The notes under the pieces were generated by a model that was given only the letters and a program-made list of their open reading frames with translations, was not told where the DNA came from and did no database searches. A stretch of 64,000 bases of DNA from Acidimicrobiia bacterium (GTDB lineage: Bacteria > Actinomycetota > Acidimicrobiia > Spongiisociales > ZC4RG35). Positions 41,245-55,245 of this stretch are shown in pieces (within the stretch, counting starts at the first letter, position 1; every line of letters begins with the position of its first letter). Both the position numbers and the translations under genes were made by a program. The stretch covers positions 1,856,001 to 1,920,000 of the forward strand of contig CBDBCY010000004.1 in the NCBI GenBank assembly GCA_965203555.1, read 5' to 3'.

Positions 41245-41433
41245 CTAGCCGCAGCAGGTGTCCATGGTCTGATCGGACCAGGGGTGATCGGACTCGGCTG
41301 TCTCGCCTTCCGGCTGGCCGTTGCGTCCCCCGCACTTGGAGCACGCCCACACCGTAGGCATCCTGGCGCCCGGAGGCACCAGCGACCGATATTGATGGTC
41401 GCAATCCGGACATCTGATCTGCAACACCGGCAT
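41245..41433 (-). CDS. small zinc-ribbon protein (CxxC...CxxC, C-terminal CCG)
   Basis: 62 aa, 2 nt downstream of the lyase gene, SD gaggt. Confidence 0.7.
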   Translation of the reverse strand: MPVLQIRCPDCDHQYRSLVPPGARMPTVWACSKCGGRNGQPEGETAESDHPWSDQTMDTCCG

Positions 41434-41435
41434 GG

Positions 41436-42938
41436 CTACCTCTCGGCAATGCTAGAAGCGGCAACCAGCAATCGAGAGACTGCGGCGTCAGTTCGGGCAG
41501 AGATCTCAGACGACCATTCTCTGGCCCGTTCCACTCTGGCCCTCACTGAATCACAGTGCTCAAGTACCCGGGAGGGAGCGGAGGAACCCGGCGCATCTCG
41601 GAGAGAGAGCAGCGCTCTCCCGGTTTCCACCCCTGCCGCAACCGCCTCGAAGTCTGTCTTGTAATCCAAGCCTAACTCTTGAGCCGCGTGACGCAGATCC
41701 TCCCCCGTAGGCCACCGCCCCCCCGCTGCATCGGCTTCGGCAACCGCCCGAGCCACCACCCGGTAGGAGCTTCGGTAATCCAAGCCCAGCCCCAGAACCA
41801 GCCTCTCCGCCAGATCGGTGGCCGTCGAATAGTTCTCGCCGGCCGAGCGAGCCAACGCCTCTGGATCCACTTCCATGTCCCTCACCACCTGGCTGCCCAA
41901 CCTCACCAACCGGGTGGCCATTTCCACTGCGGCAATCACCTCGCCATAGGCGTACAACCAGTTGTCGGTTCGGGCCGAAGGGGTTCGCTGGGTGACCATC
42001 AGCCCGGTCGCCTTACCGATCAGGGTTCCGGCTCCTCCCCGGATCACCGACAAAGCGTACGGGTTGCGTTTCTGGGGCAACAGCACCGAAGCGCGTGAGG
42101 AGGAACCGGCCAGCCTTACGTAGCCGAATTGGGGACTGGCGAAGATCTCGAGGTCCTCCGCCAGCCGATCCAGGGTCAACACCGCCTGCCACGAGGCCAC
42201 CGCCGCGTCAACCACCACCTCCGCCGACCACATCCCGTCCCTTATGTGGCCCAGTGGTTCGTCGAATCCCAACCGGAGGGCGAGACGTTCCCGGTCAAGC
42301 GGTATGGTGGTTCCCCCTACTCCACCGGATCCGGCGGGAGACCGGTTGACCCACCTGTGACACACTTGGATGCGTTCCAAGTCACGGGTGGCCTGTTCAG
42401 CAAAACCGCACAGGTAGTAGCCGAAACTGGAGGGCTGCGCCGGTTGTAGATAGGTCGTGTCGTTGTAGACGGCATCCGCCAGCTCCACGCCTCTTCCCAC
42501 CAGAGCGGCGGCTAGGTCGGCGACTGCCTCGTGAAGTTGCAGCAATCGCTCTCGAAGCGCTATCCGCAATGCGATGCGGCCCGCCTCCCGCCGGGTGCGG
42601 CCGGTAGGCAACCATCCTGCCTCAGCTCCCAGACGCCTTTCCAATTCTCGCTCCCGGCTGTTGTAGGCATCGCCATAGAGGGAGTCATAGGGGAACTCAT
42701 CCACCGGCGTCGACCAGAAGTCCAGCAATTCCCGGCACAGTTGGCCGGCGATTCCTGCCGGGAGCACCCCGATCTCGTCCAATTCCAGAACATGGGCCAG
42801 GTCGGCCAGGGACAATCCTTGATGCAAGAACGCCGCGTCGGCCAACTCCAGGGCGTAACCCGCCTCGACCAGGCGCGGCGATGGCCCCGAGGCCAACCGG
42901 CCTTCGGCGCCCAGATAGCCTTGGGGAGGCTTGGTCAT
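41436..42938 (-). CDS. argininosuccinate lyase-like aspartase/fumarase-family enzyme, XcbC-like (CoM biosynthesis)
   Basis: TGRTRRE, TYLQPAQP and deviant signature ASVLLPQKRNP; context with comA and xec genes. Confidence 0.82.
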   Translation of the reverse strand: MTKPPQGYLGAEGRLASGPSPRLVEAGYALELADAAFLHQGLSLADLAHVLELDEIGVLPAGIAGQLCRELLDFWSTPVDEFPYDSLYGDAYNSRERELERRLGAEAGWLPTGRTRREAGRIALRIALRERLLQLHEAVADLAAALVGRGVELADAVYNDTTYLQPAQPSSFGYYLCGFAEQATRDLERIQVCHRWVNRSPAGSGGVGGTTIPLDRERLALRLGFDEPLGHIRDGMWSAEVVVDAAVASWQAVLTLDRLAEDLEIFASPQFGYVRLAGSSSRASVLLPQKRNPYALSVIRGGAGTLIGKATGLMVTQRTPSARTDNWLYAYGEVIAAVEMATRLVRLGSQVVRDMEVDPEALARSAGENYSTATDLAERLVLGLGLDYRSSYRVVARAVAEADAAGGRWPTGEDLRHAAQELGLDYKTDFEAVAAGVETGRALLSLRDAPGSSAPSRVLEHCDSVRARVERAREWSSEISARTDAAVSRLLVAASSIAER

Positions 42939-52796: not shown

Positions 52797-54368
52797 ATGA
52801 CACTCACCGCCTGGGATATTCGCGACGAGACCATCGGGATCCACGACTGGGGGCCCGAAATCGATTCGTTGCTGGAAAACTCCGACGACAACCGAGTGGT
52901 CTTCAACGTCAACGAGACCGACACTCGGCCATATGACGCTATTTTTCTGGGCGGCGGGGCGGCCGGCCGGTTTGGCTCCGCGTACATGCGAGCCATGGGC
53001 GGGCGGCAACTGATCATCGAGGCGTGGCCTTTCCTGGGCGGTTCCTGCCCGCACAACGCCTGCGTTCCACATCACCTGTTCAGCGAAGTGGCGGCCGAGC
53101 TCATGCTGGCCAGAACCTTCAGCGGAAGGTTCTGGTTTCCCGACATGGACGGAAAGATCACTTCGATCAAGGAGATAGTCGACCTCTTCCGGGCGGGCCG
53201 GATAGCTCCCCACGCCATCATGAACTTCCAGAGCAAAGAGCAACTCGATCTCGAATACGTCCTGAACGCCCGCGGCGCGATCATCGACGCCAACACCGTG
53301 GAGGTGGCGGGTCGAAGGTTCACGGCCAAGAATCTGATTCTCGGCCTCGGCGCCCGGTCACGGCCCTTGGATTGCCCGGGAGCGGATTTGCACGGTGTCT
53401 ACACCTACGAGACACTGGTGGAGGACCTCGACTACGAACCGGGCGACACCGTGGTGGTGATCGGTGGTTCCAAGACGGCAGTGGAGTACGGGTGCTTCTT
53501 CAATGCCACGGGACGGCGCACCATCATGGTGGTCCGCTCGGAGTTGCTGCCCATCCTCCCGGATGGGGAAACCCGCGACTACACCATCACCATGATGAAG
53601 GAACAGGGCATGGAGATCTGGGAACACTCCGAGGCCTCCCATCTCGAAGGGGACCGCAACGGCAAGGTCAAGGCGATAACCGTCAAGACGCCAGACGGGT
53701 TGCGAAGGATCGAGACCGACTTCGTGTTCCACGGATTGGGCGAGATCCCCAACTCGGAGATGGCTGTGGAGAAACTGGGAGTGAAGGTCGGCGACCAGGG
53801 CCAGATAATCGTGAACCCGCAGATGCAGACCTCGGTCCCTAACGTCTACGCCATCGGCGATCTGATCGGCCGCCCCATGGAGATGTTCAAAGCTCGCAAG
53901 TCGGGCATGTACGCCTCCCGGCACATCATGGGAGAGGATGTCCACTATGCCTTCGACGAGTTCCCCGACTTCCTTCACACCCACTATGAGGTGTCATGGT
54001 TCGGGATGGGTGAGGAGGAGGCTCGGGAGGTCTATGGAGACGTGACCATCATCAAGATGCCACCGGAGACCGAGGACGGCTGGGAAGTGGCCCTGCCAGC
54101 TACCGACCGGATGATGCTCTACGCCTTCGCCGATCCTCGCAAGTCGGGATTCCAGAAGCTCATCATTGCCTCGGCGTCTCGGCGGGTAGTGGGCGCCCAC
54201 CATGTCGGGGCCGGCGCCAGAGACGCCTTCCAGTACTTGTTCCAGTTGTACAGGCGAGGATTGACCATAGACGACCTGGCAGTAATGGACGAGCTCTTCC
54301 TCAACCCCACCCACTTCATCCAGCTCTCCCGTCTGCGCGCAGGAGCCGAGAACCTCCAAGACCTCTAG
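52797..54368 (+). CDS. xecC: 2-ketopropyl-CoM oxidoreductase/carboxylase (2-KPCC)
   Basis: 523 aa. [45 protein letters not shown] and [20 protein letters not shown] match recalled XecC, including Phe in place of the DSOR catalytic His. Confidence 0.95.
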
Positions 54369-54378
54369 AGTCGGTCGC

Positions 54379-55245
54379 ATGCCCACTTGGCTAGAGATTG
54401 GCGTCCCTGCGGAGGTCATCGAGTCCCGCGCCGGCAGGGATGTCGGCGTCGGGGTGACCATGGTTATCGACAGCGGCCTAGGCCTGGCCGCTACCCGGGA
54501 CATCCTGTCCGTTGCCGGGCAATGGATCGACCACTGGAAGCTGAGCTTCGGCACGTCGGCCCTGATGCCCGAGAACCTCCTTCGGGAGAAGCTGGCGCTG
54601 ATCAGGAGTGCCGGGCTCTTGGTCTTCCCCGGGGGAACGCTGTTCGAATCCGCCGTCCTTCACGGCCATGGTGAGGTCTACTTCGAGAAGGCTGCCGAAC
54701 TCGGCTTCACCGCGGTGGAGATCTCGGAGGGAACTCTCGATCTGCCGACCAACCAGAGGCTGTCATCCATCCAGGCCGCTGCCGGCGCCGGCCTCATCGT
54801 GATCTCGGAAGTGGGCAAGAAAGATCCTCTCGGGCAACCCAGCCCTCCGGAGTTGGCGGAACAAGCGCTGATGGATCTCGAAGAGGGTGCTCGCTGGGTG
54901 GTGGTGGAAGGCAGGGAATCGGGGCGAGGCGTGGGGGTCTTCAGCAACACCGGCGGGGTCAACATGGAGGCGGTGGAAACCATCGCCCTCCACGTCGGCG
55001 ACGCCGTAGACCGGCTGGTGTGGGAGGCACCCATAAAGAGCCAGCAGGTCACCTTCATCCAACGGTTCGGACCCAATGTCAGCCTTGGCAATATTGATCC
55101 CACCCAAGTGCTGGCGCTGGAGGCCCTTCGGGCCAGCCTGCGATTCGAGACCCTACAACCCCTGGTCAGGCAACAACTGGCGGATCCGGACGAATGGCGG
55201 GAGAAAACAGGCCTCCTATGGGCGGCTTCTTTTCCTACTCCCTGA
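54379..55245 (+). CDS. comA: phosphosulfolactate synthase (ComA/XcbB)
   Basis: TMVID.GLG, KLSFGTS, PGGTLFE, EISEG, SEVGKK, EGRESG, WEAP and GPNVSLGNI. Confidence 0.92.
   Translation: MPTWLEIGVPAEVIESRAGRDVGVGVTMVIDSGLGLAATRDILSVAGQWIDHWKLSFGTSALMPENLLREKLALIRSAGLLVFPGGTLFESAVLHGHGEVYFEKAAELGFTAVEISEGTLDLPTNQRLSSIQAAAGAGLIVISEVGKKDPLGQPSPPELAEQALMDLEEGARWVVVEGRESGRGVGVFSNTGGVNMEAVETIALHVGDAVDRLVWEAPIKSQQVTFIQRFGPNVSLGNIDPTQVLALEALRASLRFETLQPLVRQQLADPDEWREKTGLLWAASFPTP

Follow-up and report, generated by a model that had tools for sequence, protein, structure and literature searches.

How does a bacterium come to hold a full set of genes for making coenzyme M (CoM) and for carboxylating epoxides with it, with no alkene monooxygenase beside them? 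We addressed this question in an Acidimicrobiia genome (NCBI GenBank assembly GCA_965203555.1, here G000; 3.42 Mb in four contigs, 95.2% complete), in a stretch of 64,000 nucleotides of contig CBDBCY010000004.1 (3.14 Mb) that is referred to throughout as the window. Until now, CoM-dependent epoxide carboxylation was known from few alkene degraders in culture and, from 2024 on, from methanotrophs. A first reading of the window's letters, made before this analysis (the original prediction), had proposed a complete cluster for CoM biosynthesis and epoxide carboxylation without an alkene monooxygenase, in a probable member of the Acidimicrobiia. The host assignment was borne out, the five same-genus genomes that carry the same genes (G006-G009 and G011) being Acidimicrobiia/Acidimicrobiaceae. 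We favor, with a probability of about 0.6, the reading that the locus is a functional, chromosomally fixed CoM island for short-chain epoxides, carried by a bacterium that lives with marine invertebrates and lacks a dedicated alkene monooxygenase, and that it would serve in epoxide scavenging or detoxification.

A fourteen-gene island for coenzyme M synthesis and epoxide carboxylation

Genes were identified with Pfam and NCBIfam profiles and by comparison with plasmids pXAUT01 of Xanthobacter autotrophicus Py2 and pNOCA01 of Nocardioides sp. JS614. The island comprises 14 genes that lie close together and form two divergent arms, 68 bp apart (window positions 41245-56221; Table 1). All of the genes listed in the original prediction are present at their assigned positions and in the two divergent arms described there, and two of its names can be made more specific: the 'xecG-like' gene encodes XcbA, and the 'Zn ribbon' is a XecB-like open reading frame (ORF) of 62 amino acids. 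Overlaps of 4 nt occur at four gene junctions within the island. Three start codons differ from those of the longest ORFs, namely those of XcbD (ATG at 45222, overlapping the XcbA stop), of the second short-chain dehydrogenase/reductase (SDR; ATG at 48232) and of CoA-transferase subunit B (ATG at 49917, overlapping the subunit A stop). By comparison with characterized clusters, the predicted gene sets for CoM biosynthesis (XcbA-E, where ComA is XcbB) and epoxide carboxylation (XecA, XecC and the SDRs) are complete, as had been claimed, and the 13 pathway genes appear intact and translationally coupled.

The five-step bacterial CoM pathway XcbA-E was established by Wu et al. (2022; PMC9457059). 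For all five of the corresponding island proteins the best NCBIfam match is the model of the same name, and all have homologues in the Py2 or JS614 clusters. XcbA scores 374.5 bits with the XcbA family (cut-off 150), matches Pfam DUF7714 and is 54% identical to its JS614 homologue; XcbD scores 661.4 bits with CoM_syn_XcbD, over the cut-off of 600, and is 57% and 42% identical to the JS614 and Py2 proteins, respectively. ComA/XcbB reaches 265 bits with Pfam ComA and 292.7 bits with TIGR03849 (cut-off 280), at 53% identity to Py2 XcbB and 35% to JS614 ComA. XcbC, with Pfam domains Lyase_1 and ASL_C2, is 56% identical to JS614 XcbC and 43% to Py2 XcbC; XcbE, a member of Pfam PALP, shares 48% identity with its JS614 homologue and 37% with XcbE of Py2. 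In the right arm, the acyl-CoA synthetase carries the Pfam domains CoA_binding_2, Succ_CoA_lig, Ligase_CoA_2 and ATP-grasp_5 and is 47% identical to its homologue in the JS614 cluster.

The XecB-like ORF at the left end matched no Pfam or NCBIfam family. A tblastn match to Xanthobacter Xaut_4866, a small ORF located between xecA and xecC in Py2, falls on it with 42% identity over 53 amino acids; we take xecB to be the name of this small Zn-ribbon gene. A 120-amino-acid ORF at 41102-41464, considered as the Zn ribbon, was rejected as lying in the wrong frame. For comparison we used the best 80 of 231 stretches with XecA relatives (at least 70% identical, one genome per species), which span the Acidimicrobiia, many Actinomycetes, Alpha-, Beta- and Gammaproteobacteria (including methanotrophs) and Chloroflexota, and in which neighborhoods were counted within 10 kb of XecA. 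The XecB-like ORF has homologues in 61 of the 80 loci, CoA-transferase subunit A lies near XecA in 64, and the CoA-transferase/ligase module is kept across most of them; XecC, counted at 45% identity or above, is present in 55.

A sigma-70 promoter scan of the island, including the intergenic region between the arms, gave no matches. In a contig from a coral-labelled run (X3), this region carries a 21-nt insertion at window position 48179, which resembles a duplication of the adjoining sequence and may represent regulatory strain variation.

Table 1. Features of the island and its left edge, in window positions.
Feature	Position	Strand	Remarks
Strain-specific filler, left island edge	37187-41244	.	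~4 kb, additional in G000
XecB-like small Zn-ribbon protein	41245-41433	-	62 aa; two CxxC pairs and C-terminal CC
XcbC, predicted phosphosulfolactate phosphate-eliminating lyase (aspartase/fumarase superfamily), CoM step 2	41436-42938	-	
XcbE, predicted pyridoxal phosphate (PLP) enzyme, 3-sulfopropionyl-cysteine to sulfoethanethioaldehyde, CoM step 4	42935-43879	-	
XcbD, predicted 3-sulfopropionylcysteine synthase, CoM step 3	43876-45222	-	
XcbA, predicted [2Fe-2S] reductase, final CoM step	45219-46136	-	
XecA/EtnE, predicted epoxyalkane:CoM transferase (EaCoMT), Zn-dependent, MetE-like	46232-47341	-	
XecD-like SDR, predicted R-2-hydroxypropyl-CoM dehydrogenase (R-HPCDH)	47438-48163	-	
Divergent intergenic (putative promoter) region	48164-48231	.	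68 bp
Second SDR, etn-cluster type, S-HPCDH-like, predicted hydroxyalkyl-CoM dehydrogenase	48232-49002	+	
CoA-transferase subunit A	49006-49920	+	Pfam CoA_trans; JS614 cluster homologue 65% identical
CoA-transferase subunit B	49917-50720	+	Pfam CoA_trans; JS614 homologue 66% identical
ADP-forming (NDP-forming) acyl-CoA synthetase, alpha and beta domains fused	50717-52792	+	
XecC, predicted 2-ketopropyl-CoM oxidoreductase/carboxylase (2-KPCC)	52797-54368	+	
ComA/XcbB, predicted phosphosulfolactate synthase, CoM step 1	54379-55245	+	
F420-type luciferase-like (LLM) oxidoreductase	55249 to ~56221	-	ORF extends to 56352, conservation stops at ~56221

Catalytic signatures of the epoxide-processing enzymes

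XecA is 78% identical to Py2 XecA, 50% to JS614 EtnE and 47% to the NBB4 enzyme, and the next matches on the plasmids, to MetE-like proteins, reach at most 32%. The protein matches Pfam Meth_synt_2 and, in a pairwise alignment with Py2 XecA, keeps the Zn ligands His218, Cys220 and Cys341, the numbering being that which we take to apply to the Py2 Zn site.

XecC is 64% identical to its Py2 counterpart and carries the Pfam domains Pyr_redox_2 and Pyr_redox_dim of the FAD disulfide-oxidoreductase fold. It matches PDB 1mo9 with 768.9 bits, and the only solved structures matching below 1e-30 are 2-KPCC entries (1mo9, 7mgo and 7mgn). The redox pair Cys82/Cys87 is kept within a CPHNAC motif, as are the carboxylase-specific Phe501/His506 (FLNPTH), which replace the His-Glu dyad of ordinary disulfide oxidoreductases, His137/Met140, and the CoM-sulfonate-binding residues Arg56 and Arg365. 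These residue numbers are presumed ones; the Py2 protein has the expected residue types at those positions.

The XecD-like SDR (49% identical to Py2 XecD) keeps the catalytic triad Ser142/Tyr155/Lys159 and the sulfonate-binding residues Arg152 and Arg196. The closest homologue of the second SDR is that of the JS614 cluster (62% identical), with Py2 XecE at 48%. Its top solved structure is 4gh5/4itu (198 bits), for which the PDB title reads only 'SDR' and which we take to be S-HPCDH.

The island is chromosomal and under purifying selection

Comparison of the DNA of 17 genomes of the genus placed the island, from XecB to LLM, at one chromosomal site in six of them (G000, G006-G009 and G011), and this site is empty in nine. 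In the cluster-free genomes (for example G002, G010 and G012) the core flanks, which lie at ~37190 and ~57680 (the selB 3' end) in the window, are 74-125 bp apart where the gaps were read off. Internally deleted remnants occur in two genomes: G005 retains XecB, XcbC and LLM at the island site, and G004 has XcbC, XcbE, part of XcbD, the end of ComA and LLM elsewhere. Six species-level genomes carry the 14 genes without disruption. Between G000 and four congeners, at dS values of 0.5-1.5, dN/dS is 0.03-0.19 for every island gene, with XecA (0.028-0.040) and XecC (0.044-0.064) the lowest; that of the flanking core gene NfeD is higher, at 0.15-0.22. Purifying selection on the island is strong. Across its whole length, contigs with about 99% identity were found in runs labelled as sponge metagenome, coral metagenome and, in part, marine metagenome, from three further studies.

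These observations bear on the proposal that the island is a decaying, unused relic of a lost alkene pathway. The deleted remnants, the empty site in nine genomes and our failure to find a monooxygenase or a known regulator (see below) would all accord with decay, but 14 intact genes in six genomes, held at low dN/dS over this range of dS, and nearly identical island contigs in three other studies would not, and we consider a relic extremely improbable.

The GC content of the island (0.635) is close to that of the window (0.62) and of the four contigs of the genome (0.61-0.62), and the island is therefore not a recent arrival. The XecA and XecC trees proposed in the original prediction were built, along with others (quick LG+G4 trees rather than mixture models, with path lengths also used): XecA and XcbD group with actinomycete homologues (Pseudonocardia and others), and XecC and ComA with those of alphaproteobacteria. 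In the XecC tree, a branch with a support of 100 places the Acidimicrobiia clade (7 rows, SH-aLRT 100) on the proteobacterial side. On sequence grounds, the island is a long-resident, chromosomal mosaic of actinomycete-type and proteobacterial-type genes.

An LLM oxidoreductase gene, convergent with ComA, belongs to the same island and is added to the earlier gene list. Its product scores 284.6 bits with TIGR03564 (cut-off 234), and the F420 genes cofD and cofH are encoded in G000. Within the genus the gene is confined to genomes with the island or its remnants, and it is found in 17 of the 80 related loci. Two of these, from soil Actinomycetota (L034 and L036), have an operon LLM-XcbC-XecC-XcbA-XcbD-XcbE in which LLM comes first, and a third (L042) has the same LLM-led order with XecC not detected. 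We considered LLM as the missing epoxidase and rejected it, because it belongs to an F420-dependent subfamily and accompanies clusters in genomes where a soluble di-iron monooxygenase (SDIMO) exists (L034, L036 and L042).

No alkene monooxygenase was found in the genome

Among the 33 other ORFs of the window, Pfam recognized neither a hydrocarbon monooxygenase nor a regulator, in agreement with the original prediction. Its description of the surroundings stands as regards the monooxygenase, but the right flank is not empty and holds an AHJR-like nuclease gene and SelB/SelA. The genome-wide search for an alkene monooxygenase, which had been singled out beforehand as the result that could overturn the prediction, found neither an SDIMO nor a copper membrane monooxygenase (CuMMO) in G000. 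The SDIMO hydroxylase profile (PF02332) and those of the CuMMO A and C subunits (PF02461 and PF04896) had no matches in this genome; the XamoA-E and EtnA-C queries found nothing by tblastn at E values up to 1e-3, and those with XamoF and EtnD found generic reductases only. SDIMO was likewise not found in the five island-carrying congeners, among which G007 is a single contig of 2.9 Mb, or in G033, the others including genomes of five and seven contigs; CuMMO was not found in G006-G008 or G033. Positive controls were matched for SDIMO on pXAUT01 (two matches), for CuMMO on Methylomicrobium lacus, and for the Xamo queries at locus L054. The MEDS and helix-turn-helix (HTH) regulators of JS614 and the Py2 regulator Xaut_4864 had no tblastn match in G000 at E values up to 1e-3; homologues of these regulators adjoin XecA in many other loci, with MEDS in 27 of the 80.

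The absence of an adjoining monooxygenase is common among relatives. An SDIMO lies within 10 kb of XecA in one of the 80 loci, and the statement in the original prediction that such clusters sit beside an alkene monooxygenase was overstated. The 80 loci come from 79 genomes, 30 of which have an SDIMO above the cut-off anywhere in the genome; CuMMO is present in 26 of the remaining genomes (including G476, locus L068, an unpublished genome), and 23 of the 79 have neither, a figure in which many are metagenome-assembled genomes of uncertain completeness and a few are bins of methanotrophs in which pmoA is probably simply missing. The cleanest cases are Acidimicrobiia genomes of 1-7 contigs. XecA itself was found in seven of 401 sampled Acidimicrobiia species: G000, one of two other sampled members of its genus, and five of five from another family in that order, Candidatus (Ca.) Spongiisociaceae.

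Two alphaproteobacterial loci (L060 and L063) have amoA-like CuMMO genes ~17-18 kb from XecA, and in a third (L061) a CuMMO gene shares a 22-kb contig with XecA. This set, which includes Methyloceanibacter, suggests that non-canonical alphaproteobacteria use alkenes or alkanes with the help of copper monooxygenases.

A number of observations weigh against our reading, and several of them concern the possibility that an epoxide-forming enzyme was overlooked. The absence of such an enzyme is negative evidence in a genome that is 95% complete, and a plasmid could be missing from the bins, because Py2 and JS614 carry their known alkene monooxygenase genes on plasmids (of 316 kb and 308 kb). A search for the StyA-type epoxidase (PF17885), run without a positive control, gave no match in five genomes. 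Seven P450 genes were found in G000, all more than 80 kb away from the island, and congeners have slightly more P450 genes where the island is present (4-7) than where it is absent (2-6). In Ca. Spongiisociaceae, three of six genomes tested carry, 0.3-1.4 Mb from the same cluster, a Xamo-like SDIMO of four to five components, whose XamoA is 46% identical in the two loci that were fetched.

Other observations of this kind concern the island itself. The function assigned to it derives from orthology. XcbC and XcbE fall below the strict 'exception' cut-offs of their top NCBIfam models (CoM_syn_XcbC, 394.7 bits, cut-off 575; CoM_syn_XcbE, 224.9 bits, cut-off 450). In the second SDR the sulfonate-binding pair of S-HPCDH is, by alignment, half kept, with the Lys retained and the Arg replaced by Thr; we take this pair to be Arg211/Lys214, a presumed numbering that did not fit the Py2 translation. 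On the supporting side, there is a weak hint of expression: in one metatranscriptome library, from a coral-labelled sample, short contigs fall on XcbD, XecA, the XecD-like SDR, the CoA-transferase and the ligase with 0-3 differences, and one falls on LLM with 16; contaminating DNA is possible in RNA libraries. These contigs (X7) leave 12 of 30 bins of the stretch uncovered, including XecC, and contigs of this kind can show neither the absence nor the level of expression.

Taken at face value, the plasmid location in Py2 and JS614, the P450 genes and the three Ca. Spongiisociaceae genomes would suit a conventional split alkene pathway, in which the monooxygenase was missed because its genes are on a plasmid or unbinned, because they fall within the 5% of the genome that is missing, or because it is of another type, such as a P450; the presence of SDIMO genome-wide in 30 of 79 XecA carriers, though adjacent in one of 80 loci, points the same way. 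We consider a split pathway unlikely in G000, given that SDIMO was found in none of the six island-bearing genomes searched and CuMMO in none of the four searched, and that no EtnR/MEDS-type regulator was found in G000. Three genomes of the Ca. Spongiisociaceae genus g18 likewise have XecA with no SDIMO found. The P450 search proposed in the original prediction was carried out and yielded the seven genes mentioned, none of them specific to island carriers; a P450 as a co-varying epoxidase was rejected, the nearest lying ~87 kb from the island and being syntenic in cluster-free genomes. With both SDIMO-bearing and SDIMO-free members in Ca. Spongiisociaceae, both states therefore exist among close relatives, and the conventional split pathway exists there. 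A deletion scar in G000 was sought through the SDIMO neighborhood of this family, and no shared synteny was found.

At one Ca. Spongiisociaceae locus (L098; G042:C1:460148-460814) the SDIMO beta-subunit matches fall in two pieces in different frames, possibly a frameshift from decay or an assembly error. Two of the seven P450 genes in G000 encode GPP34 (GOLPH3-like)-P450 fusions (C4:2326344-2329037, L003, and C4:1566496-1568526, L005), an architecture reported as exclusive to sponge symbionts (PMC11706023); the main text of that report mentions neither coenzyme M nor epoxides nor alkenes.

Comparison with known systems

The monooxygenase-less cluster has a published precedent. Toppings et al. 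(2024; PMC11507031) described a monooxygenase-less etnE/CoM cluster in Methylohalobius crimeensis and in ~10% of methanotrophs, which is expressed, laterally acquired and interpreted as serving epoxide detoxification. As in G000, a single cluster unites EaCoMT, an SDR, a two-subunit CoA-transferase, an NDP-forming acyl-CoA synthetase, a disulfide reductase and CoM biosynthesis; in the methanotrophs, however, the epoxide is made by their own particulate or soluble methane monooxygenase (pMMO/sMMO) and the cluster comes with a MEDS regulator, whereas no CuMMO, SDIMO or MEDS was found in G000. The enzymes, the cluster type and its monooxygenase-less version are thus already known.

Each step of the pathway is served by the same enzymes as in Py2 (XecA, XecC, XecD and ComA/XcbB at 78%, 64%, 49% and 53% identity and XcbC, XcbD and XcbE at 37-43%), and both have a XecB-like ORF. 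The Py2 genes differ in being plasmid-borne and co-directional, with the six-component xamoA-F 3-8 kb upstream and a regulator nearby, and in lacking the CoA-transferase, the ligase and LLM, while the island of G000 is chromosomal, divergent and without a monooxygenase. With the etn clusters of JS614 and Mycolicibacterium it shares the divergent two-arm layout, and its SDR, CoA-transferase subunits and ligase are 62%, 65-66% and 47% identical to those of JS614, with XcbA, XcbC, XcbD and XcbE at 48-57%. In JS614, by contrast, EaCoMT is followed directly by the SDIMO (etnEABCD), MEDS/HTH regulators are present, and the disulfide reductase is 25% identical to XecC, whereas the enzyme in the window is a true 2-KPCC and is accompanied by a XecA of the Py2 type.

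Marine Halieaceae (Haliea ETY-M and ETY-NAG, and PE-TB08W) also have a Py2-group EaCoMT, 2-KPCC, HPCDHs and CoM genes (PMC6440738, PMC4036023); they are Gammaproteobacteria that grow on ethene or propene, and a pMMO-like or sMMO-like monooxygenase adjoins their epoxide genes. In a sponge metatranscriptome of 2015, a transcript for phosphosulfolactate synthase appears under the heading of 'methane' metabolism (PMC4412061). Our literature search, whose scope ended short of Tables S2-S5 of PMC11507031 and the supplements of PMC11706023, found the pathway described neither for Acidimicrobiia nor for symbionts of sponges or corals and, again short of supplements, found no description of monooxygenase-free carriers other than methanotrophs as a class. 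The island extends bacterial CoM biosynthesis to a class for which we found no earlier description.

Source and fate of the epoxide

In the pathway suggested by orthology, ComA/XcbB, XcbC, XcbD, XcbE and XcbA would make CoM from phosphoenolpyruvate, sulfite and cysteine, and the Zn-dependent XecA would open an epoxide, such as epoxypropane or epoxyethane, with the CoM thiol. The two SDRs would oxidize the resulting (R)- and (S)-hydroxyalkyl-CoM to 2-ketoalkyl-CoM, of which XecC, with NADPH, would reductively cleave the thioether and carboxylate the enolate, releasing acetoacetate and free CoM. The CoA-transferase and the ADP-forming ligase would then pass the product, or its C2 analogue, into CoA-thioester metabolism; in ethene degraders this module is thought to lead to acetyl-CoA (PMC6440738, PMC11507031).

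Since neither SDIMO nor CuMMO was found, the epoxide most likely comes from outside. It may be formed through co-oxidation by neighboring microbes or the host, or by an unrecognized oxygenase, and the island would act as a module for epoxide detoxification and scavenging in which one CO2 is fixed per C3 epoxide. Ammonia monooxygenases co-oxidize ethene and propene to epoxides, and so do the methane monooxygenases of methanotrophs. The latter activity is described in PMC11507031.

It is also conceivable that the natural substrate is another electrophile: haloalcohols or haloalkanes derived from halogenated products of the host could reach XecA directly or via an epoxide formed by an SDR of the halohydrin-dehalogenase type, with CoM serving mainly as a detoxifying thiol. 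Py2 degrades epichlorohydrin and chloropropanols through the CoM epoxide pathway, no alkene-activating enzyme was found here, the habitat labels are sponge and coral, and ~40 SDR paralogues in G000 match XecD or XecE. Nevertheless, XecA is 78% identical to the Py2 enzyme and the most constrained gene of the island (dN/dS ~0.03), and XecC keeps all residues for 2-ketopropyl-CoM carboxylation, which together point to canonical C3 (or C2) hydroxyalkyl-CoM intermediates; the alpha/beta-hydrolases of the window, moreover, reach 70-73 bits with the NCBIfam haloalkane dehalogenase model, whose cut-off is 241. We therefore judge a substrate of this kind improbable, and retain short-chain epoxides as the likely substrates of the island.

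If epoxides do arrive from outside, the island suggests that epoxide consumption is separable from alkene oxidation and can be divided between organisms, which bears on marine ethene and propene cycling, on detoxification within holobionts and on the little-noticed CO2-fixing reaction of 2-KPCC. We put forward, tentatively and as something we rate below an even chance, a broader proposal: small epoxides might be a shared currency or toxin in sponge and coral holobionts, where two Acidimicrobiia lineages, which keep the complete island under strong purifying selection, would be obligate scavengers that fix CO2 in the process, with neither an alkene oxygenase nor the usual epoxide sensor, and about three in ten XecA-bearing species (23 of 79) might form a guild of 'orphan epoxide consumers'. 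The epoxides could stem from co-oxidation by ammonia and methane oxidizers, from SDIMO-bearing relatives or from host P450s. The 23 carriers without SDIMO or CuMMO make this a wider, testable pattern. One cultured actinomycete, Longivirga aurantiaca CGMCC 4.7317 (L030), has XecA, XecC and XcbA-E with no SDIMO or CuMMO match, and opens the question to experiment.

Flanking regions and other features of the window

The filler at the left edge of the island contains a 2.9-kb segment bracketed by a 37-bp perfect inverted repeat (37187-37223 and 40103-40139). It holds a fragment of an IS5-family transposase (39423-40118) and ORFs of 434 and 219 amino acids with no family assigned, the larger of which lies inside the inverted-repeat segment. 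A 921-bp element at 39219-40139 has more copies in G000 (on C2 and C4) and four in the congener G009. On the right, an AHJR-like nuclease gene, additional in G000, is followed by selB/selA (57688-60866); just downstream of selB, at 57609-57666, is a perfect tandem duplication with a 29-nt unit, of which contigs from X2 and X3 have one copy.

No direct repeats flanking the island were found. A tRNA or tRNA-Sec as its integration site was rejected, as ARAGORN found none between 33 and 64 kb, and no tRNA-Sec beside selB/selA between 30 and 64 kb; the sole tRNA is a tRNA-Pro at 32796-32872.

Four paralogous alpha/beta-hydrolase genes occupy the left end of the window (20-706, 736-1578, 1619-2512 and 5859-6698). 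As haloalkane dehalogenases or epoxide hydrolases they were rejected on the scores given above, their best NCBIfam matches being haloalkane dehalogenase and enol-lactonase, all far under the cut-offs. They are followed, at 6821-14491, by a defence-like set comprising a TerB-N/TerB/TerB-C protein (6821-9019), a BrxC/BrxD-family ATPase (9016-10371), a DEAD/DEAH helicase (10340-12691) and, on the minus strand, an AAA_14/DUF4143 ATPase (12995-14491). Further along, at 23853-27535, a molybdoenzyme of the xanthine dehydrogenase family, with a Mo-binding subunit and a fused FAD/2Fe-2S subunit, adjoins a deaminase and two PLP enzymes.

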